Assembly: GCA_045595395.1 (NCBI GenBank)
Contig: JAZOAH010000008.1
Span: 27,857 to 91,856 of the forward strand
Source of the DNA: Eubacteriales bacterium
GTDB lineage: Bacteria > Bacillota > Clostridia > Oscillospirales > UMGS1783
Length of the DNA stretch: 64,000 bases
Direction of reading: 5' to 3'
Shown one piece after another: positions 17,536 through 26,155 of this stretch. The notes beneath the pieces are model-generated. The model saw only the letters and a program-made list of their open reading frames with translations. It did not search any database and was not told the DNA's origin. A program made the position numbers and the translations under genes. Each line of letters starts with the position of its first letter. Position 1 is the first letter of the stretch.

Positions 17536-18420
17536 ATGGAGAAGATTTTAACCGGATTTCTTACTTACATTAAGGAAGAAAAGAAAGCAACAGCAAATAC
17601 TTGCGCATCCTATCGCCGCGATCTGGATGCTTATTTTTCGTTTCTGATTATACACGGCAAAAGAGATCCGCTGATTGCATCAAAAGATACATTAAACGAT
17701 TATCTTAATAATCTTAAGGATGGCGGCAAATCAGGCAACACGATTGCTCGCAACCTTTCTTCCATACGTAGTTTCTATCAATACTTAATGATTCAAGGTA
17801 AAATAGAGGAAAACCCGGCTAAAAACATTAAATACCATATCGCAGACCGCAAATTACCGGATATTCTGACCGCAGAAGAAGTGAATTTACTTCTCGAACA
17901 GCCGCAATGCACCACACCAAAAGGGTTTCGCGATAAAGCGATGTTGGAGTTATTATATGCAACCGGCATGAAGGTCACAGAACTTGTTGATCTTGAGATT
18001 CATGATGTAAATATTCATCTTGGCGTCATTCACTGCACAGGCAGCACCGGAGGGCGCATCGTCCCCATGCATAAAACTGCTGCAAAAGCTCTTGAGGATT
18101 ACATGGCAAAAATTCGCCCGCTCATGGTGGATAATAAGGAAAATACCGCTCTTTTCGTTAACACAAATGGCGCACGGCTAACACGACAGGGCTTCTGGAA
18201 AATCATCAAAGCCTACGCACACAGCGCCGGTATACATAAGGACATTACCCCACAAACGATTCGCCATTCTTTTGCTTCACACCTATTAGAGAACGGGGCG
18301 GATATAAAGGCTATTCAGGAAATGCTGGGGCATACCGACATTTCCTCCACACAATTTTATGCAAAAATAATTAAAAACCGCTATAAGGATGTATACAATA
18401 AATTTCATCCCCGCGCATAG
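17536..18420 (+). CDS. xerD: XerD/RipX-family tyrosine recombinase with substituted catalytic residues
   Basis: LTRQGFWKIIK XerD signature, RHSFASHLLENGAD, LGH..ISSTQFY; but TGMKVTE (R to K), TPQTIRH (H to Q) and no GKGxKER lysine. Confidence 0.88.
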   Translation: MEKILTGFLTYIKEEKKATANTCASYRRDLDAYFSFLIIHGKRDPLIASKDTLNDYLNNLKDGGKSGNTIARNLSSIRSFYQYLMIQGKIEENPAKNIKYHIADRKLPDILTAEEVNLLLEQPQCTTPKGFRDKAMLELLYATGMKVTELVDLEIHDVNIHLGVIHCTGSTGGRIVPMHKTAAKALEDYMAKIRPLMVDNKENTALFVNTNGARLTRQGFWKIIKAYAHSAGIHKDITPQTIRHSFASHLLENGADIKAIQEMLGHTDISSTQFYAKIIKNRYKDVYNKFHPRA

Positions 18421-18422
18421 AA

Positions 18423-18447
18423 AAGCCGTGTCATTAAGACACGGCTT
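18423..18447. terminator. Hairpin terminator between the two convergent recombinase genes
   Basis: AAGCCGTGTC-attaa-GACACGGCTT. Confidence 0.75.
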
Positions 18448-18469
18448 ATGCAAATAAAAGGGGAGGGGA

Positions 18470-19450
18470 TTATTCTTCATTCTTACCAACCTTGATCTTA
18501 CCCAATGGATTAGCGTTCGCTGCTTCTTCCAACTGCGTTTTCCCAAGGTGCGTGTATATCTGCGTCGTACCAAGATTTTCATGGCCCAAAACCTCTTTGA
18601 GCACACGAATATCCACGCCATTTTGAAACATAAGCGTCGCTGCCGTATGGCGTAGTTTGTGCGTAGAAAACCGTTGCGGATCCAAGCCAGCCTTTTCAAT
18701 ATATTTTTTCACCAAGTTTTGGACCATCTGATGGCTGATTCTGGTCTTACGATTACTTAAAAATAGGGCCTTTTTATCAATAACGCCGTCAACTGGGCGT
18801 ACCCGCATGTAAATATGAATCGCTTCCTGACAGGCCTCATTTAGATAAACAACACGCTCTTTGCCGCCTTTTCCTAATACTCGCAAACGATTATCGTGTA
18901 TATCGGTTAAATTGATACCAACTAATTCCGATAATCGTATTCCGGTATTTAAAAAAACCACAAGAATCGCATAATCGCGCTGACGGTTTTTTCCGTCAAC
19001 GGCAGCCAGCAGACGCAGGCATTCATCATATTCCAAATGCACCGGCAAGTTCCGTCTAGGCTTTGGAAGATCGAGATCGGCCACAGGATTAAAATCCAAC
19101 AATCCGGCTTTTACCGTTAAATACTTATAGAAGCTTCGCAACGTTGATGCTTTGCGAGCCCTGGTACGACTACGATTATTACGATCATTTGCAAGGTAAA
19201 TAAAGAACTCATAAATATCAGAAACAGTAATGGATTTAATCAGATCAATATCAACGGTGCTGATATCAATTTCTTCAAACGGAACAGAATCCGGACATAA
19301 GTTTTTTGATAAAAGTATATAACGAAAAAATGTACGTAAGTCCAGATAATATTCATCAACCGTTTTTGTTGATTTGCCTCGAATTGTCTGTGCGTGAACC
19401 AGAAACTCACGAATTGGCCCAGAAACATCAGAAAATCGGTATTTTGTCAT
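18470..19450 (-). CDS. xerC: Xer-family tyrosine recombinase (clostridial XerC-type), catalytically intact
   Basis: TGIRLSEL (R), GKGGKER (K), HKLRH (HxxR), LGHEN (H), TQIYTH (Y); GAGGGG RBS at 19458-19463. The symbol is a family label; orthology to E. coli XerC is not shown. Confidence 0.85.
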   Translation of the reverse strand: MTKYRFSDVSGPIREFLVHAQTIRGKSTKTVDEYYLDLRTFFRYILLSKNLCPDSVPFEEIDISTVDIDLIKSITVSDIYEFFIYLANDRNNRSRTRARKASTLRSFYKYLTVKAGLLDFNPVADLDLPKPRRNLPVHLEYDECLRLLAAVDGKNRQRDYAILVVFLNTGIRLSELVGINLTDIHDNRLRVLGKGGKERVVYLNEACQEAIHIYMRVRPVDGVIDKKALFLSNRKTRISHQMVQNLVKKYIEKAGLDPQRFSTHKLRHTAATLMFQNGVDIRVLKEVLGHENLGTTQIYTHLGKTQLEEAANANPLGKIKVGKNEE

Positions 19451-19466
19451 TTTTCTTCCCCTCTAA

Positions 19467-19494
19467 ATTGAACAAAATATTCATTTTGTTTAAT
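19467..19494 (+). other. attL: symmetric dif-like recombination site (11-6-11)
   Basis: ATTGAACAAAA-TATTCA-TTTTGTTTAAT; arms are inverted repeats (extend to 13 bp, 19465-19496, one mismatch); each arm matches the E. coli XerD arm TTATGTTAAAT at 9/11. Confidence 0.85.
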
Positions 19495-19496
19495 TT
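19478..19496 (+). repeat. Left 19-bp att core direct repeat
   Basis: TATTCATTTTGTTTAATTT, identical to 25113-25131. Confidence 0.95.
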
Positions 19497-19510
19497 AAGG
19501 GGGGATTTTT

Positions 19511-19600
19511 TTGTCTGTTTTAGAATGGCTTTTGTTCATGTCCGTTTCCCTGCAAGTGCTCCAATTTTTATTTTTTCTAAAGGATAGGTATCTAAAATGA
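19511..19600 (+). CDS. Prophage 29-aa hydrophobic peptide (not in ORF track)
   Basis: TTG start after AAGGGGGGA; MSVLEWLLFMSVSLQVLQFLFFLKDRYLK; ATGA overlap with the next ORF. Confidence 0.55.
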   Translation: MSVLEWLLFMSVSLQVLQFLFFLKDRYLK

Positions 19601-19782
19601 ATGAAATTAAAAATGTTAAGTTTCGTTTGAAATCTGAAATGCCCAAGTTGTCTACTGATGCCGTGCAAGAGTTTGAAGATGCTTTTTGGCGTCTTGTAGA
19701 TATGTATGGCATACCCGAGGCCTGCAATAAAACTTTGTCTATTGTTGAAGATCTTCTTGATGAGATCATGAACCATGAGTAA
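19597..19782 (+). CDS. Prophage hypothetical protein, 61 aa
   Basis: RBS-like AAGGATAGGT; part of the chain of overlapping ORFs. Confidence 0.65.
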   Translation: MNEIKNVKFRLKSEMPKLSTDAVQEFEDAFWRLVDMYGIPEACNKTLSIVEDLLDEIMNHE

Positions 19783-19942
19783 TGATGTGTATGCCGTGAA
19801 CGGCTTTTATTGGGCTTTAGATTCCCTTTGCCGTTATCATGCCGGTAATAATGATGTCATTACTACAATTCGTGCACTAGATGAAGTGCGTGAGACTCTG
19901 CTTAAAGATGCAGAATATAAAACAAATAATGAGGTGAAATAA
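19775..19942 (+). CDS. Prophage hypothetical protein, 55 aa (not in ORF track)
   Basis: MSNDVYAVNGFYWALDSLCRYHAGNNDVITTIRALDEVRETLLKDAEYKTNNEVK; overlaps both neighbours (8 nt, TAATG). Confidence 0.6.
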   Translation: MSNDVYAVNGFYWALDSLCRYHAGNNDVITTIRALDEVRETLLKDAEYKTNNEVK

Positions 19943-20055
19943 TGTATCGTTCTACTGCTCCCCGTGGTGATCACCACGTTTTCCGCCGTACTGCCGCCAG
20001 TACCAAGCGCATCAATGTGAATCCAGGTAATTATCGTGGAGGTATCCGTCTGTGA
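19942..20055 (+). CDS. Microvirus DNA-binding/packaging protein VP8 (J-like), 37 aa (not in ORF track)
   Basis: MYRSTAPRGDHHVFRRTAASTKRINVNPGNYRGGIRL with the FRRTA..K.IN..RGGIRL hallmark; GAGGTG RBS. Confidence 0.9.
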   Translation: MYRSTAPRGDHHVFRRTAASTKRINVNPGNYRGGIRL

Positions 20056-20219
20056 GTGATAAATTTCTAAAAATTTTGATGGATGCTCGGTTATTTCTTC
20101 TGGAAATCTTAAATGAGGTTGAGGATGCCGATGATCTCGGCTATATGTGCCGCAATCTTAAAACTTTACTATCTGAACATGAACTGCTCAGTATTTACAA
20201 AAAGGAGTGTCAAGAATGA
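20052..20219 (+). CDS. Prophage hypothetical protein, 55 aa (not in ORF track)
   Basis: GTG start 8 nt after GGAGGT; MSDKFLKILMDARLFLLEILNEVEDADDLGYMCRNLKTLLSEHELLSIYKKECQE; GTGA and ATGA overlaps. Confidence 0.6.
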   Translation: MSDKFLKILMDARLFLLEILNEVEDADDLGYMCRNLKTLLSEHELLSIYKKECQE

Positions 20220-20551
20220 AACAGCGCTTATATTCGATTTATGATATGCGTTCCAAAACCTATGGAATCCCTTTCGTTGCAGTAAACGACGACATTGCCA
20301 AGCGCACTGTGGCGTCGACTTTGCTCAGTGTCCCCCCTACCCATCTGATGTTTGCCTTTGCATCCGACTATGAATTATATTATCTTGGTGAGGTGATGGA
20401 AAATGGTAGTTTGGCTACGGCTGAAACTGGCGCTCAAGCAATTACTTTCCTTAGTGATATCCTTCAAGTATACAAAGTGAATGAAAAAAGAGAGGTGATT
20501 TTGAATGATGTTCGCATGCAGAACGAGCCGCAGAGAGACCACGCCGAGTAA
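20216..20551 (+). CDS. Microvirus nonstructural protein VP5 (C-like)
   Basis: LYSIYD....YGIPF....DD.A.R...DYELYYLGE...G pattern; AAAGGAG RBS favours ATG 20216. Confidence 0.85.
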   Translation: MKQRLYSIYDMRSKTYGIPFVAVNDDIAKRTVASTLLSVPPTHLMFAFASDYELYYLGEVMENGSLATAETGAQAITFLSDILQVYKVNEKREVILNDVRMQNEPQRDHAE

Positions 20552-20984
20552 GTCCGGCTCTCCTACTGCCCCTATTTTCGTTAAAGCCTTTGATGAAAAT
20601 GGTGAGCCTTATCTCGCTGAAAAAGGTGTTAAAAATATTTACGATATCATTCAGTCTTATCATGATGATACTCGTATCGAGAGCATTGTATCTCGTTATG
20701 AGCAAGGTGATAAGTCTGTCCTTGGCAAGCTGCAGGGCTTTTATGCAGATATGACTGCCCAGGCTAAAACGCTCCAAGAGGCTGAAAATGCTATGATCAA
20801 AGTAAAATCCTTGTATGATCGTATGCCTACTGCTGTGAAACATAAATTTCCTGATGTAAATTCTTTCATTGGCGCTATTGGTACTGATGATCTGAAACAG
20901 ATGCTCACGCCGGCGAAGGACACGGACAAGCCCAGTGAAGTTAAAGAAACGGTAAAGGAGAAGGTAGATAATGTTACAGCGTAA
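20505..20984 (+). CDS. Microvirus internal scaffolding protein VP3 (B-like)
   Basis: IQSYHDDTRIESIVSRYEQGD...GFYADMT...LQEAEN...YDRMPTAVKHKF pattern; directly upstream of VP1. Confidence 0.85.
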   Translation: MMFACRTSRRETTPSKSGSPTAPIFVKAFDENGEPYLAEKGVKNIYDIIQSYHDDTRIESIVSRYEQGDKSVLGKLQGFYADMTAQAKTLQEAENAMIKVKSLYDRMPTAVKHKFPDVNSFIGAIGTDDLKQMLTPAKDTDKPSEVKETVKEKVDNVTA

Positions 20985-22791
20985 TGTAAATAGCCGTTTT
21001 GCACAAAATCCCACCCTTGAAAATCAACGCTCCCGTTTTGATCGAAATAATACTTATAAGACCACTTTTAATGCTGGTGATCTCATTCCCATTTATGTTG
21101 ATTCAGATATTCTTCCCGGCGATACGGTAACTATGGATACTGCGTCTGTTGTCCGCATGTCCACCCCGATTTACCCGGTCATGGATAATGCTAATATCGA
21201 CATTTTTTGGTTCTTCGTCCCCCATCGTATTGTATGGGATGATTTTGAACACTTTATGACTGGCGGGCTCGATGCCGGCGAATGGGATGCCCCGACCGTA
21301 TATGAGCCGCCTATGGTGCGCCCTCGAACTTTTTCCTATCCTTCCGGTCAGTTTGAATACAAAGGTTATCCATCTAAAACTTTAGCGGACTATATGGGTA
21401 TTCCTTGTGGTTTTTCTGCACCTGGTGATGAGCGTGCTTTTAATACGGATATTGCCGAAGGTGTTTCTGCTCTTCCTTTCCGTGCGTATGCTAAGATCTG
21501 GAACGATTGGTTTCGGTCATCGTCGATTCAACCGGAAATTCTTATTCCGACCACTAGTGGTTTTTCTTGGCAACCCATATTTTATGTGAATGATGGCGCT
21601 CCTGTAGATGGATATAAGCAATTATATTCTTATGGTGATCATGCTAATGTTCTTGTAAAAAATGAAGGCACGACCGTTTATGGCGGTGCTTTGCTTAAGG
21701 CCAACAAATATCATGACTTTTTCACCAGCGCTCTTATCGAGCCTCAGCGTGGTGAGCCTGTCGGTGTTCCGCTTGAAGGTGCTTTGCCTGTTGTTACTAC
21801 TGGTGTTAATACATGGCATATTCCGCTGGATACTCCTCCGCTTATGTTTGCTAAACAGGACAAGGCCATGTCTGGCACATATGAAGAGGTAGGTTTTTTA
21901 CAGACAGTTGGGCCTGACAATGTTTATGCTTCGCCTGGTTCTGTATCTGCTGGTCAGGAAAATCTTAACGGTTATTGGTTAAATCCTGTTAATCTTGTTG
22001 CTGATACTTCGGTAAGCAATACATTGCAGATTTCCATTAACGATCTTCGTCATGCTATGGCTGTTCAGCACATTCTCGAACTTGACGCTCGTTCCGGATC
22101 CGGACGATATATTGACCTTTTGAAAGGTCATTTCGGTGTCACCTCTCCTGATGCTCGCCTTCAGCGTGCTGAGTATCTTGGCGGTGCCTCGATTCCCATT
22201 AACATTACTCCGGTAGCGCAGACCTCGCAGACGAGTGATGTGTCCCCTCAGGGTAATGTTGCGGCATACTCTTGGACTAGTGATGTGTCCAGTTCTTTTA
22301 CTAAGTCTTTTGTTGAGCATGGTACTTTGATGTGTCTTGCCGTTGTTCGTCATGTCAGATCTTATCAGCAAGGCCTTCACAAGATGTGGTCACGGCCGAC
22401 CCGCTACGATCACTATTGGCCGTCTTTGGCTAATATATCTGAACAGGCTATCCTCAACAAGGAGATCTTTGTTTCCGGTGATCCGGAAATAGATAACCAG
22501 GTTTTTGGATATCAAGAGGCCTTTGCCGAGTATCGTTATAAGCCTAGTATTGTTACTGGCGCTATGCGTTCCTCTTATCCGCAGCCGTTGGACGCTTGGC
22601 ATTATGCTGACTATTATACCGGCACGCCGCATCTGTCCTCTGAATGGTTGCAGGAAGGTAGTGAAGAAATTGACCGCACACTTGCAGTTTCTTCGGCTGT
22701 TGAAGATCAGTTTATCGGTGACTTTGCGTTCAACTCCCAGTGGTACCGTGTAATGCCGATGTATTCGATCCCTGGCCTCGATCGCATGTAA
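20971..22791 (+). CDS. Microvirus major capsid protein VP1 (F-like), 606 aa
   Basis: RSRFDR..TYKTTFNAGDLIP, PGDT, PVMDN, FFVPHRIVW, LPFRAY..IWNDWFR, DARLQRAEYLGG, FGYQEAFAEYRYKPS, MPMYSIPGL. Confidence 0.98.
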   Translation: MLQRNVNSRFAQNPTLENQRSRFDRNNTYKTTFNAGDLIPIYVDSDILPGDTVTMDTASVVRMSTPIYPVMDNANIDIFWFFVPHRIVWDDFEHFMTGGLDAGEWDAPTVYEPPMVRPRTFSYPSGQFEYKGYPSKTLADYMGIPCGFSAPGDERAFNTDIAEGVSALPFRAYAKIWNDWFRSSSIQPEILIPTTSGFSWQPIFYVNDGAPVDGYKQLYSYGDHANVLVKNEGTTVYGGALLKANKYHDFFTSALIEPQRGEPVGVPLEGALPVVTTGVNTWHIPLDTPPLMFAKQDKAMSGTYEEVGFLQTVGPDNVYASPGSVSAGQENLNGYWLNPVNLVADTSVSNTLQISINDLRHAMAVQHILELDARSGSGRYIDLLKGHFGVTSPDARLQRAEYLGGASIPINITPVAQTSQTSDVSPQGNVAAYSWTSDVSSSFTKSFVEHGTLMCLAVVRHVRSYQQGLHKMWSRPTRYDHYWPSLANISEQAILNKEIFVSGDPEIDNQVFGYQEAFAEYRYKPSIVTGAMRSSYPQPLDAWHYADYYTGTPHLSSEWLQEGSEEIDRTLAVSSAVEDQFIGDFAFNSQWYRVMPMYSIPGLDRM

Positions 22792-22805
22792 GCCTATCCC
22801 GTCCA

Positions 22806-22850
22806 TTGCCCGGTATGCCCTCGTGACCTCTGCCGGGCACAATTTTTATT
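22806..22850 (+). terminator. Stem-loop after VP1 (candidate weak terminator)
   Basis: TGCCCGGTA-N15-TGCCGGGCA then CAATTTTTATT. Confidence 0.45.
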
Positions 22851-22860
22851 GAGGTGTATT

Positions 22861-23013
22861 ATGAATCAGATCCAATTAGAAAGTGTTTTAGATGCTATTG
22901 AGCATAAACTAGATATTCTTTTCGATTCCTGTACTGGTGTTCAGTTGTTTGATATTTATGGTTACCTTCGTGATGAATCAGATCGTTTTCTAAAAAAGTA
23001 TATTGATGCATAA
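22861..23013 (+). CDS. Prophage hypothetical protein, 50 aa (not in ORF track)
   Basis: GAGGTG RBS; MNQIQLESVLDAIEHKLDILFDSCTGVQLFDIYGYLRDESDRFLKKYIDA; stop overlaps the VP2 RBS (TAAGGAG). Confidence 0.65.
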   Translation: MNQIQLESVLDAIEHKLDILFDSCTGVQLFDIYGYLRDESDRFLKKYIDA

Positions 23014-23024
23014 GGAGTGATTTT

Positions 23025-23711
23025 ATGCTTGCTCAACATGCCGGTGGTGGTTTTGCCGCAGGTAATTCCGCTAGTAATATTCTTAATGGAAAAACTAACG
23101 GTAATACTCTTGTCGGTGCTTTTGATGCGTATGCGCAAGATTTTGCATTAAGTAGTGGTAATTATATTGCCCCGCTTATAAATGGTCTTTATGACTCTAT
23201 TTTGAGTGCTGAGCAGACCAGTGCAAATAAGCAGATGGCATTTCAGCGAGAGCAGAATGAACTTGCTATGTCTTATAATTCTTCTGAGGCGCAGAAAGCG
23301 CGTGATTTTAATGCTGAACAAGCCGCAATTAATCGTCAATTTCAGCAAACTAGTGCTGATAAGCAGATGGCGTTTCAGGAGCGTATGAGTAATACTCAGT
23401 ATCAGCGTGCTGTTGAGGATCTGAAGAAAGCCGGATTGAATCCTATTCTTGCCGCAGGTGCTAGCGCATCTTCCCCGGCTGGATCCTCGGCCTCCGGCTC
23501 TTCGGCCTCCGGTGCGTCTTCCGCAATTTCTGCAATGTCGGGATCTAAGGCTAATGCCTCCGGTGCTGGTTCCTCTGCTGTTTCTGCTTTTAATGCTCTA
23601 CTTGGATTTATTGGTAATCAATCGGAAATGTATAATTCCGGCATGCAAGGTCTTACTGGTCTTGCCAATCGTGCATTTTCTCTTTTAGGTGTTAATGCAA
23701 AACGCCGTTGA
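23025..23711 (+). CDS. Microvirus DNA pilot protein VP2 (H-like), 228 aa
   Basis: FQERMSNTQYQRAVEDLKKAGLNPILA motif, 11-residue coiled-coil repeats, Ser/Ala/Gly-rich tail. Confidence 0.93.
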   Translation: MLAQHAGGGFAAGNSASNILNGKTNGNTLVGAFDAYAQDFALSSGNYIAPLINGLYDSILSAEQTSANKQMAFQREQNELAMSYNSSEAQKARDFNAEQAAINRQFQQTSADKQMAFQERMSNTQYQRAVEDLKKAGLNPILAAGASASSPAGSSASGSSASGASSAISAMSGSKANASGAGSSAVSAFNALLGFIGNQSEMYNSGMQGLTGLANRAFSLLGVNAKRR

Positions 23712-23843
23712 TTATCCATATACTTCTTGTAGTGTTTCAAGGAACATTTGCATTGCTTTGAATCTACTCGTATAGTCAAGTAATATGATTACTAAAACTA
23801 TAACGGTTATTGCAAGTATTGCTATGGTGATATTTTTCCACAT
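23712..23843 (-). CDS. Prophage antisense 43-aa single-TM protein (not in ORF track)
   Basis: MWKNITIAILAITVIVLVIILLDYTSRFKAMQMFLETLQEVYG; GAAAGGA RBS 8 nt upstream; stop abuts the VP2 stop exactly. Confidence 0.7.
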   Translation of the reverse strand: MWKNITIAILAITVIVLVIILLDYTSRFKAMQMFLETLQEVYG

Positions 23844-23866
23844 GGTCCCTTTCCTTTCTATTCAGC

Positions 23867-23875
23867 ATTGTAGCA
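23867..23875 (-). promoter_or_regulatory. Extended -10 promoter candidate for the antisense gene
   Basis: TGcTACAAT on the minus strand, placing the start of transcription near 23860 just ahead of the RBS; no good -35. Confidence 0.5.
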
Positions 23876-23960
23876 ATTTTTATTTGACAAGCTGTACAGT
23901 TCCCGAGCCGAAAGCCGCCTTGCGGCGAACCCGGCACCGTCCAGTTGTAATTGACGGATG

Positions 23961-23997
23961 CTCAGCCCCATTACCCTCTTGATGTAATGGGGCTGAG
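23961..23997 (+). other. Viral-strand rolling-circle origin hairpin
   Basis: Perfect 14-bp stem CTCAGCCCCATTAC/GTAATGGGGCTGAG with loop CCTCTTGAT, matching the phiX174 nick core CTTG^AT; just upstream of rep. Confidence 0.85.
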
Positions 23998-24028
23998 TGA
24001 CACAATTTACAGAAAAGAGGTGATAATT

Positions 24029-25105
24029 GTGTCTTGTGATTGTCCTAATATTGGTATCTTTAAGCGTGGCCTAGATGGTAAACGTGAACTTGTGAAAATG
24101 TTTCAGTATGTACCGGATAAGATGATTGATAATTACTACAAAGATTATTGTAATCTCTTTGCCGATAAATCCGATACTGAGATAAAATACCAAAAGACCG
24201 CTGATGGATACCATGAAATTATGCTTTTGCCTTGTGGTAAGTGTATAGGTTGTCGGTTAGAGTATTCTCGTCAATGGGCGATGCGTTGTACTCTTGAGGC
24301 TCTACAGCATGAGTGCAATTATTTTGTTACCCTCACTTATGATGACCTTTCTGTCCCTACAAACCCCTACAAGTTGTGTTGTGATCCTGATACTGGCCTT
24401 GTTACACATGATGGTCATTCTCATCCCCTTGTTCCGGATGATCTGAAGAAATTTATTAAGGACTTGCGCCGTCATTATGAGTATCATTATAACCATAAAG
24501 GTATTAGGTTTTTCGCTTGTGGTGAGTATGGCGGTAAGACCGCACGCCCTCATTTCCATATCATACTGTTTAATTGCCCAATTTTAGACCTAGAACTTTA
24601 CAAGAGGAATTTTCAAGGAAAGCCTTACTTTAATTCAAAAACATTTGACAAGATATGGAATAAAGGTTATACTGTTATTGCAGAGTGTTGTTTTGATACT
24701 TGCGCCTATGTTGCCCGGTATATCATGAAAAAGCAGACCGGACAAAACAGGGTTATTTATGACAATCTCGATGTAACTCCTGAATTTACTCGCATGTCAA
24801 GAAAGCCCGGCATAGGCCGAACTTATTTTGATGAAAATCTAGATAAGATCTACACCTATGATCAAGTTACCTTGCTAGGTGCAGATGGTAAAGCATTACA
24901 GCCCTGCCCGCCTAAATACTTTGATAAGATTTATGCGGAACTCGAGCCTGACCACTTTGAAGAGGTCAAGCAAAAACGGCTTGTTAATCAAGCCAAAGTA
25001 GAAAGGAGTCGTGAATATCAAACAGGTTTATCCAAGGCAACTCATATCCACATGCAAACGCACGAGCGTGATCGTGCAATTCTCGCTCTAAAACGGCAGA
25101 ATTAG
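24029..25105 (+). CDS. Microvirus replication initiator VP4 (HUH endonuclease, A-like), 358 aa
   Basis: PCGKCIGCRL, FVTLTY (motif I), RPHFHIILF (HUH), YVARYIMKK (motif III, two Tyr), MSRKPGIG; GTG start after GAGGTG gives MSCDCP. Confidence 0.96.
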   Translation: MSCDCPNIGIFKRGLDGKRELVKMFQYVPDKMIDNYYKDYCNLFADKSDTEIKYQKTADGYHEIMLLPCGKCIGCRLEYSRQWAMRCTLEALQHECNYFVTLTYDDLSVPTNPYKLCCDPDTGLVTHDGHSHPLVPDDLKKFIKDLRRHYEYHYNHKGIRFFACGEYGGKTARPHFHIILFNCPILDLELYKRNFQGKPYFNSKTFDKIWNKGYTVIAECCFDTCAYVARYIMKKQTGQNRVIYDNLDVTPEFTRMSRKPGIGRTYFDENLDKIYTYDQVTLLGADGKALQPCPPKYFDKIYAELEPDHFEEVKQKRLVNQAKVERSREYQTGLSKATHIHMQTHERDRAILALKRQN

Positions 25106-25129
25106 AGAATAGTATTCATTTTGTTTAAT
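25102..25129 (+). other. attR: hybrid dif-like site with degenerate phage arm
   Basis: TTAGAGAATAG-TATTCA-TTTTGTTTAAT; the left arm matches the host arm at only 5/11 and contains the VP4 stop codon. Confidence 0.8.
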
Positions 25130-25131
25130 TT
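25113..25131 (+). repeat. Right 19-bp att core direct repeat
   Basis: TATTCATTTTGTTTAATTT, identical to 19478-19496. Confidence 0.95.
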
Positions 25132-25156
25132 TATCATAAAATATAACTATTGTCAA
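25128..25156 (-). promoter_or_regulatory. Sigma-A promoter, inferred native promoter of the recombinase gene, now facing antisense into VP4
   Basis: TTGACA (25156-25151)-N17-TAAAAT (25133-25128) with extended TG; the -10 box overlaps the att repeat. Confidence 0.8.
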
Positions 25157-25203: not shown

Positions 25204-26118
25204 ATGTGGAATGAATTAGTTATTACGATTGCCGCAAAAAACTGCGATTTGGCCGCAAATATTTTAACGGTTTTGAATCATGATGGTATGTTTATTGAAG
25301 ATTTTTCTGATCTCATGGAAAATGACGCAGTGAAACAAACCAATCTTGTTGAGCAAGAATTATTAGATAAAATCTACAATGATCCCATCATCCACCTCTA
25401 CATCTCCCCTAATCAAAATCTAGCGGAAATGACACAATCCGCTCAGTCGTTATTGGATCAAAACCAAATTGAATATCATCTTGACGTAAAAGAAATTCCT
25501 GACAAAAACTGGAACGAAGAATGGATGAAATATTATAAGCCGGTGCATATCAATGACCGTTTAACCATTGTTCCTCGCTGGTTAAATTATAAGCCACAGA
25601 CGGACGAGTTGACGGTTTTATTAGATCCGGGCGCAGCCTTTGGAACCGGCACCCATGAAACAACAAAACTTTGCTTGGATGCATTAACCCGATACGTAAA
25701 AAATAATGACCGCATCCTCGATGTCGGTACAGGAAGCGGCATTTTAGCGATCACCTCTCTCCTTCTTGGCGCTAAATCAGCCGACGCTATTGATATTGAC
25801 CCTCTCTCCGTTAAGGCAGCCGGCGAAAACGCCAGATTAAACCATGTTCACGAGAAATTAAGCGTAAAGCTTGGTAGCTTGCTTGATGAAGCAACCGGGC
25901 ACTATCAGGTCATAACTGCCAATATTGTGGCCGACGTTATCATCTCCATGCTATCCGATCTAAAGCAACACATGAATACCGAAAGTACACTGATCCTCTC
26001 CGGCATCATTCGTGAGCGCGCACAAGATGTTCTAGATGCACTCAGCAAACATTCCTATCGTATAAAAGAGCATTTGCAAGACGGTGAATGGGTTGCATTT
26101 GTCGTAAGTATACAATAA
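25204..26118 (+). CDS. prmA: Ribosomal protein L11 methyltransferase
   Basis: WMKYYKP, DPGAAFGTGTHETT, LDVGTGSGILAI, ILSGII. Confidence 0.96.
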   Translation: MWNELVITIAAKNCDLAANILTVLNHDGMFIEDFSDLMENDAVKQTNLVEQELLDKIYNDPIIHLYISPNQNLAEMTQSAQSLLDQNQIEYHLDVKEIPDKNWNEEWMKYYKPVHINDRLTIVPRWLNYKPQTDELTVLLDPGAAFGTGTHETTKLCLDALTRYVKNNDRILDVGTGSGILAITSLLLGAKSADAIDIDPLSVKAAGENARLNHVHEKLSVKLGSLLDEATGHYQVITANIVADVIISMLSDLKQHMNTESTLILSGIIRERAQDVLDALSKHSYRIKEHLQDGEWVAFVVSIQ

Positions 26119-26155
26119 GAAAAGCAGAGTTAACATGGTTAACTCTGCTTTTCTT
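26117..26155. terminator. Bidirectional terminator
   Basis: AAGAAAAGCAGAGTTAAC-atg-GTTAACTCTGCTTTTCTT. Confidence 0.88.

Follow-up and report, generated by a model that had tools for sequence, protein, structure and literature searches.

A gokushovirus-like prophage at a chromosomal dif site separates a XerC-like recombinase gene from its promoter

The locus, its attachment sites and the displaced promoter

The stretch of DNA analyzed here (the window) comprises 64,000 nucleotides (nt) of contig JAZOAH010000008.1, from the Eubacteriales bacterium assembly GCA_045595395.1, and contains a microvirus-like prophage inserted directly upstream of a host gene for a XerC-like tyrosine recombinase (xerC below). 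The insertion lies in a dif-type site, the target of Xer recombination, and the promoter that precedes xerC in related genomes is found at the far end of the prophage, 5.6 kb from the gene. This arrangement, together with the ancestral layout deduced for it, is nearly certain. The features at the center of the analysis are as follows.

17536..18420, plus strand: xerD, 294 amino acids, convergent with the xerC-like gene (TIGR02225 XerD equivalog, PF00589, PF02899)
18470..19450, minus strand: XerC-like, Xer-type tyrosine recombinase, 326 amino acids, intact (PF00589, 133 bits)
19451..19466, minus strand: xerC leader with ribosome-binding site GAGGGG (direct reading; aligned with GGGGGAG of the empty-site relatives)
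19467..19494: attL, intact 28-bp dif-type site (11-nt arm, 6-nt core TATTCA, 11-nt arm)
19478..19496: left copy of the repeat, comprising the core, the promoter-side arm and 2 nt (repeat family D4, direct reading)
about 19497..25112: prophage of a gokushovirus-like microvirus with a unit length of 5,635 nt, recognized genes all on the plus strand (Pfam and PHROG)
24977..24995, minus strand: terminator-like hairpin with T-run, ∼125 nt downstream of the predicted start of the displaced promoter (hairpin also in RNA fold)
25102..25129: attR, hybrid site in which a degenerate phage arm and the promoter-side arm of the host flank the identical core TATTCA
25128..25156, minus strand: displaced xerC promoter, TTGACA-17-TAAAAT with TG (promoter scan; conserved place in six relatives, L002-L006 and L008)
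25204..26118, plus strand: prmA, the divergent neighbor that marks the host flank (TIGR00406, 237.8 bits, over the cut-off)

Inspection of the insertion boundaries revealed an exact 19-nt direct repeat with copies at 19478-19496 and 25113-25131, 5,635 nt apart. At attL the two arms match at 10 of 11 positions as an inverted repeat, which is the layout of a classical dif site. The core and right arm of attR are identical to those of attL, whereas its left arm is unrelated and holds the phage rep stop codon. The full palindrome, ACAAAA-N6-TTTTGT, occurs once in the 1.43-Mb assembly (G000), and the GC skew of the contig changes at the site, from ∼0 on its left to ∼−0.12 on its right. In the complete genome of a relative (G020; 2,229,578 bp, dnaA at 22-1320), the homologous palindrome lies between convergent genes at 1,146,003, opposite dnaA and 51.4% of the way around the circle, a position which argues that the attachment (att) site of the microvirus is the chromosomal dif. 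A search for a tRNA gene at the locus found none, and the att site is thus not of the tRNA type.

The original prediction held that a minus-strand promoter at 25156-25128 had belonged to the recombinase gene before insertion. The promoter scan recovered this sequence, TTGACA-N17-TAAAAT with an extended −10 TG, as a match at 11 of 12 consensus positions. It is one of two such matches among the 22 found between 17000 and 27000 and the only one of the 22 with an extended −10 TG, its spacer ending in TGA. Shuffled sequences gave 26.2 matches (standard deviation 4.7); the class is not enriched, so a single match taken alone is weak evidence. In its hexamers, 17-nt spacing and conserved position, the sequence nevertheless has the attributes of a sigma-70/sigma-A promoter, and the same layout in relatives raises it above a chance match. 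Its −10 hexamer (25133..25128) shares 4 nt with the 19-nt repeat, as had been proposed. Excision in silico, which removes 5,635 nt, moves the predicted start from 25121 to 19486, 36 nt before the ATG at 19450, and the dif site then spans about −8 to +20 relative to this start. At attL, the matching minus-strand positions read AAAACA, a 17-nt spacer devoid of TG, and TTAAAT, again in agreement with the prediction.

To establish the uninterrupted layout, the regions upstream of the xerC ortholog were taken from 19 other genomes, giving 20 loci in all. Five loci of the same genus (L002-L006) and one of the same family (L008) present, in unbroken order, the prmA start, TTGACA-17-TA(A/T)AAT, dif, GGGGGAG and the xerC start. 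The promoter abuts the palindrome in these six of the eight related empty loci (L007 and L009 being the others). In alignments, the attR side of the window corresponds to the promoter half of the empty loci and the attL side to the gene half, the two overlapping only in the repeat; the prmA start codon of the window also aligns with those of the relatives. The stretch between promoter and prmA is short and differs in length and content across the empty loci. The empty sites of the six relatives show that excision in silico restores the true ancestral state and, therefore, that the displaced promoter belonged to xerC.

Placement of dif beside xerC extends through the family. A dif-like palindrome lies no more than 90 nt from the xerC start in all nine family loci (L001-L009), at 86 nt in L007, and the dif site begins ∼38 nt before the ATG in L001-L006, L008, L009 and L018. 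Within 1.5 kb the palindrome was found at 15 of 20 loci and was absent from that interval in L013, L015, L016, L019 and L020; the distance reaches 7.9 kb in G020 and 104 kb in G015. Because distances vary outside the family, location of dif inside the promoter is a family-level trait. Two further loci, L010 and L011, have 290-740 nt between dif and xerC. At L012 (genome G024), a full dif-like site and a GGGGAG resembling a ribosome-binding site lie 546 nt from the xerC start, and a lone dif arm directly before xerC forms TTGACT-17-(TG)TATAAT; this layout may be what is left of an earlier insertion through which xerC acquired a new promoter.

In the lysogen, the displaced promoter faces antisense into rep. 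The terminator-like hairpin at 24995..24977 would be met shortly downstream of it, although eight terminator-like sites were found in the region against 8.0 expected, so the hairpin is possibly a chance occurrence. The promoter region also carries ATTTTATCATAAAAT at 25128-25142, an inverted repeat, so that TAAAAT can be read from either strand. On the plus strand, the copy at 25137-25142 may be the −10 element of the divergent prmA; since this copy stays with prmA at attR, prmA probably retains a promoter.

The prophage and the host recombinase genes

The prophage carries the following genes, all on the plus strand.

19597..20219, plus strand: three small phage open reading frames of 61, 55 and 55 amino acids (no family match)
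20207..20551, plus strand: VP5-like DNA-binding protein (PF20577, E=4.9e-13; phrog_1670)
20505..20984, plus strand: VP3 internal scaffold protein (PF09675 Chlamy_scaf, E=1.8e-22)
20971..22791, plus strand: VP1 major capsid protein, 606 amino acids (PF02305, E=8e-146)
23025..23711, plus strand: VP2 DNA pilot protein (PHROG pilot families, e.g. phrog_8742, E=3.2e-23)
23951..25105, plus strand: VP4 replication initiator, rep (PF23343; phrog_942, E=1.9e-99), with its stop codon in the degenerate arm of attR

The VP1-VP5 set on one strand and a length of 5,635 nt, within the range of about 4.5-6 kb, place the element among Gokushovirinae-type Microviridae. No PF00589 match, and thus no integrase, was found among the prophage open reading frames. 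The absence of its own recombinase, insertion at the chromosomal dif, and flanks consisting of one intact dif and one hybrid site are the attributes of an IMEX, or integrative mobile element exploiting Xer. The three small open reading frames that fill ∼700 nt at the left end gave no Pfam or PHROG match better than E=0.03, and a phage repressor or directionality factor sought among the small phage open reading frames was likewise not found at that threshold. A minus-strand open reading frame at 19495-19776 (93 amino acids), from which transcription might have continued into xerC, was considered as a gene and rejected: it has no family match, overlaps a plus-strand open reading frame and is preceded by no promoter-like site.

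A second 11/12 promoter-like site, TTGACA-17-TATACT, is present on the plus strand at 24645-24673, within the 3′ portion of rep. When the phage is circular, transcription from this site would cross attP and enter the left-end genes; when it is integrated, the site faces outward to prmA, and the scan predicts no plus-strand terminator-like site before that gene. A possible further consequence of integration is thus that the phage genes lose a phage promoter.

Close relatives of the phage were not recovered. Among 401 genomes of the order, the capsid protein search detected a capsid gene in one, the lysogen itself, and a search of genome contigs for capsid relatives returned three short, distant loci. 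In IMG/VR, 80 capsid loci were retrieved, the full-length matches being at most 41% identical; metagenome contigs yielded 49, the best full-length match being 43% identical (L106) and partial segments reaching 51%. A DNA search of GenBank phages returned 790 records, all Microviridae, none of which covered at least 80% of the query (best 18%). In a search for relatives at the same insertion site, neither the core plus an arm nor the palindrome was found in the 129 viral and metagenome capsid loci. The closest full-length capsid relative, L106, is a metagenome contig of 5,870 nt, circular through a terminal repeat of 55 nt. In its main non-coding region is TTTTGTATAAT, a sequence identical to the dif arm found in other families of the order and also a perfect extended −10; its meaning is ambiguous.

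The recombinase adjoining the prophage had been taken to be a host gene, and the comparative data bear this out. Orthologs at E≤3e-48 are present in 37 of 41 genomes across the order (G000 included), often beside xerD and usually convergent with it, so that the gene was not brought in by the phage but belongs to the housekeeping genes of the host. A genome-wide PF00589 search located four matching places, none of them within the prophage. The top NCBIfam match is XerC TIGR02224 at 222.8 bits, under the curated cut-off of 335.15, and the protein is accordingly designated XerC-like; its nearest solved chains are XerA 5hxy and XerD 1a0p. By contrast, the neighbor 50 nt away scores 338.2 bits against the TIGR02225 cut-off of 329.6 and is a XerD equivalog, for which the XerC-like protein is the sole Xer-type partner in the assembly. 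The host also encodes Spo0A, above the family cut-off, which assigns it to an endospore-forming Firmicute lineage.

Expected effects on xerC and on lysogeny

The explanation that we favor, to which we give slightly better than an even chance as a whole, begins with entry of an integrase-less gokushovirus-like microvirus into the chromosomal dif, probably by Xer-type recombination. Because dif lies inside the promoter and leader, any insertion there parts xerC from the −35 hexamer, the spacer, the TG and the −11 A. After integration, xerC retains an intact dif and its ribosome-binding site but no recognizable sigma-A promoter, and the strong orphan promoter points antisense into rep. Transcription of xerC would then be predicted to fall sharply and XerC to become limiting, such that excision, further integration and chromosome dimer resolution at dif would all drop. 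Since the att site is dif itself, silencing of xerC would also disable dimer resolution, and the likely outcome would be a more stable yet costly lysogen.

The steps of this explanation are not equally firm. A substantial loss of xerC transcription in the lysogen is judged somewhat probable from the sequence, whereas a biologically meaningful lock on lysogeny is doubtful. In the original prediction, the arrangement was put forward as a self-locking switch of the phage. The promoter is indeed physically uncoupled, and no comparable replacement lies in the 790 nt upstream of xerC. The effect nevertheless follows from host architecture; we regard the uncoupling as a by-product of that architecture and not as an evident phage adaptation.

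Whether xerC has found another promoter is central to the strongest of the alternatives, namely that the uncoupling has no functional effect. Here, enough xerC would be transcribed from cryptic or alternative-sigma promoters at the left end of the phage, or by read-through, and lysogeny would be as reversible as that of the gokushoviruses of E. coli. This is tentatively entertained as a minority possibility. No promoter-like match on the xerC strand, either at 8 or more of 12 positions or to TGnTAnnnT, was detected between 19451 and 20240. The nearest such sites, at 20268..20241 (8/12, 791 nt upstream) and 20402..20374 (10/12, 924 nt upstream), could serve this alternative, but both lie inside antisense phage coding sequence, 790-925 nt from the gene, and matches of this class occur at the chance rate (22 versus 26.2 expected). 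The recognized phage genes are all on the opposite strand, so that transcription of none of them can extend into xerC. A transcript from the orphan promoter is unlikely to reach the gene: it would have to run for 5.6 kb, untranslated and antisense to the phage genes, and pass the terminator-like hairpin.

Several further considerations count against a loss of xerC expression or are neutral to it. Consensus scans miss weak and alternative-sigma promoters, and sporulation sigma factors are probably present in a host with Spo0A. Small amounts of Xer recombinase may suffice. The empty locus L009 has at the −10 position the TTAAAT also read at attL, no TTGACA, and a TTGACT-17-TACTAT ∼50 nt further upstream; lacking the canonical promoter at that spot, its xerC must use another, and the promoter is thus not universal. 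Set against this, the near-consensus sequence has been kept in six relatives, which argues for its being the working promoter. In the lysogen, xerC is intact and shows no decay, with 3 lysogen-specific amino-acid changes as against 6 specific to G002 (19 unresolved). Relaxed selection on the lysogen gene was accordingly rejected, there being no excess of lineage-specific changes. This lack of decay fits either recent integration or continued function. The lysogen was, in addition, abundant enough for assembly across both junctions, with the window lying within one contig. Only a single lysogen was found in 401 genomes, too few to judge recurrence.

Overlap of dif with the xerC promoter suggests that Xer binding at dif may autoregulate this promoter. 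In a more elaborate form of the favored explanation, which seems unlikely, dif would be the operator of a strong, autorepressed promoter, and integration would act as a two-part latch, providing lysogeny without a repressor through att-site geometry. In the first step, xerC would be unplugged and XerC diluted out, ending excision, further integration and dimer resolution. In the second, the orphan promoter, left with one Xer-binding arm, would be derepressed and would fire antisense into rep. As an addition, the best promoter-like site of the phage, at 24645-24673, would have been shifted from a place upstream of the phage genes to the far end, to read into prmA.

Alternatively, the arrangement may serve the host and not the phage: dif within the xerC promoter would have evolved for autoregulation or to penalize insertions, and the lysogen would be costly and counter-selected, with dimers left unresolved and nothing gained by the phage. 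We consider this less probable still. Its closest antecedent is the Discussion of a paper on xerS, which proposes the same idea (PMC1914069). The dif-xerC layout is conserved in nine of nine family loci, and microvirus capsid genes are present in just 1 of 401 genomes of the order, as counter-selection would have it, but microvirus prophages are rare in general and other explanations have been offered (PMC7062461). This alternative overlaps in part with the explanation favored above, in that both require silencing of xerC.

An assembly artefact, in which a free microvirus genome was misjoined to a host contig through the shared 19 nt, is very improbable even for a metagenome-type assembly of 29 contigs, given that both junctions lie on one contig in the orientation expected for Xer integration, that joining the host flanks reproduces exactly the layout of six relatives, and that a 19-nt repeat is below the usual assembly k-mer length. 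Caution over microviruses in binned genomes was urged by Kirchberger et al. in 2022, in the report that described the first microvirus prophages in Firmicutes (PMC9239249).

Relation to known systems

The locus has its nearest counterpart in the Enterogokushovirus prophages at dif in E. coli, which need XerC and XerD for integration and are continuously excised, an instability to which Kirchberger and Ochman (2020) tied the rarity of gokushovirus prophages (PMC7062461). For lysogens of E. coli, roughly 1 in 5 cells is reported to be a non-lysogen. Those prophages likewise lack an integrase, combine a 28-bp dif with a dif-like phage motif that is degenerate in its far arm, and have the att site beside the end of VP4 (PMC7062461). 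In that paper, the dif of E. coli is not reported to lie in a xer promoter, so that expression of xerC and xerD is untouched, whereas here dif is inside the xerC promoter and leader. The present host also differs in being an endospore-forming Firmicute, and the capsid is only about 40% identical to any retrieved.

A dif site adjoining its recombinase gene is a hallmark of the single-recombinase XerS and XerH systems (PMC5357621, PMC9765430). The locus resembles difSL-xerS and difH-xerH in this adjacency (PMC1914069, PMC5357621, PMC9765430), but those systems have one recombinase and atypical sites (difSL is 31 bp), whereas a XerD equivalog lies 50 nt from the XerC-like gene and the site is a classical 11-6-11. 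Near-perfect inverted-repeat arms are typical of single-recombinase dif sites, as noted in a paper on Legionella (PMC9765430), and are found here as well, yet with a XerD equivalog present.

Loss of a recombinase promoter by insertion was anticipated for this class of locus. Le Bourgeois et al. (2007) considered two possible positions for difSL, either separating xerS from its promoter or forming part of the promoter, with autoregulation of xerS as a possible result, and they speculated that insertion at difSL would part the gene from its promoter; the xerS start site was not known at that time (PMC1914069). The logic of the original prediction is therefore not new: it had been foreseen for difSL-xerS, as a host safeguard and not as a phage lock (PMC1914069). 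The present locus can be described as an IMEX-type gokushovirus prophage at a dif-xer module and as a natural instance of this long-standing speculation.

The IMEXs of Vibrio and Neisseria (CTX-phi, TLC-phi and the gonococcal island) also hijack host Xer at dif, and the quality of the hybrid site governs their stability. Stability in those elements is achieved through a destroyed or weakened dif arm or a phage activation factor and not by unplugging a recombinase gene. In lambda int-sib retroregulation and at the circle junction promoters of IS911 and Tn916, the position of the att site couples expression of recombinase or transfer genes to the integrated or circular state. The gene regulated in lambda sib, IS911 and Tn916 is the mobile element's own, whereas here it is a host housekeeping recombinase.

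The literature search yielded no published case of an element lodged between the promoter and the coding sequence of a xer gene, and none of dif inside the xerC promoter in Clostridia-type genomes or in a genome that keeps XerD; most subscription journals and supplements fell outside its coverage, and this negative result could be affected by the prophage tables of PMC7062461 and PMC9239249. Location of dif inside the xerC promoter beside xerD thus appears to be previously undescribed. A classical 28-bp dif in the promoter and leader of a XerC-like gene, beside xerD at the replication terminus, would allow direct tests both of Xer autoregulation and of what the loss of Xer costs. If integration itself disconnects xerC in this host, it would provide a natural test of Xer-mediated excision as a partial cause of gokushovirus prophage rarity (PMC7062461), and also of the 2007 speculation that dif-xer linkage penalizes insertions.

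Further observations concern the surroundings of the locus. In the window (17536-19494) and at L002-L009, the dif site and the two convergent genes, xerD and the XerC-like gene, are packed into a single module where the GC skew changes, and dif falls within the xerC promoter and leader at all nine family loci. In G025, a genome of the same order listed as 100% complete, the single XerC-like match reaches only E=9e-5, and this genome may lack the XerC/XerD pair altogether. An RNA element at the att locus was considered and rejected, as the sole Rfam match was to a microRNA model, far below threshold, and fell on the prmA terminator hairpin. That hairpin is an 18-nt perfect inverted repeat at 26117-26155 that separates prmA from the convergent M18 aminopeptidase gene and probably terminates transcription in both directions.

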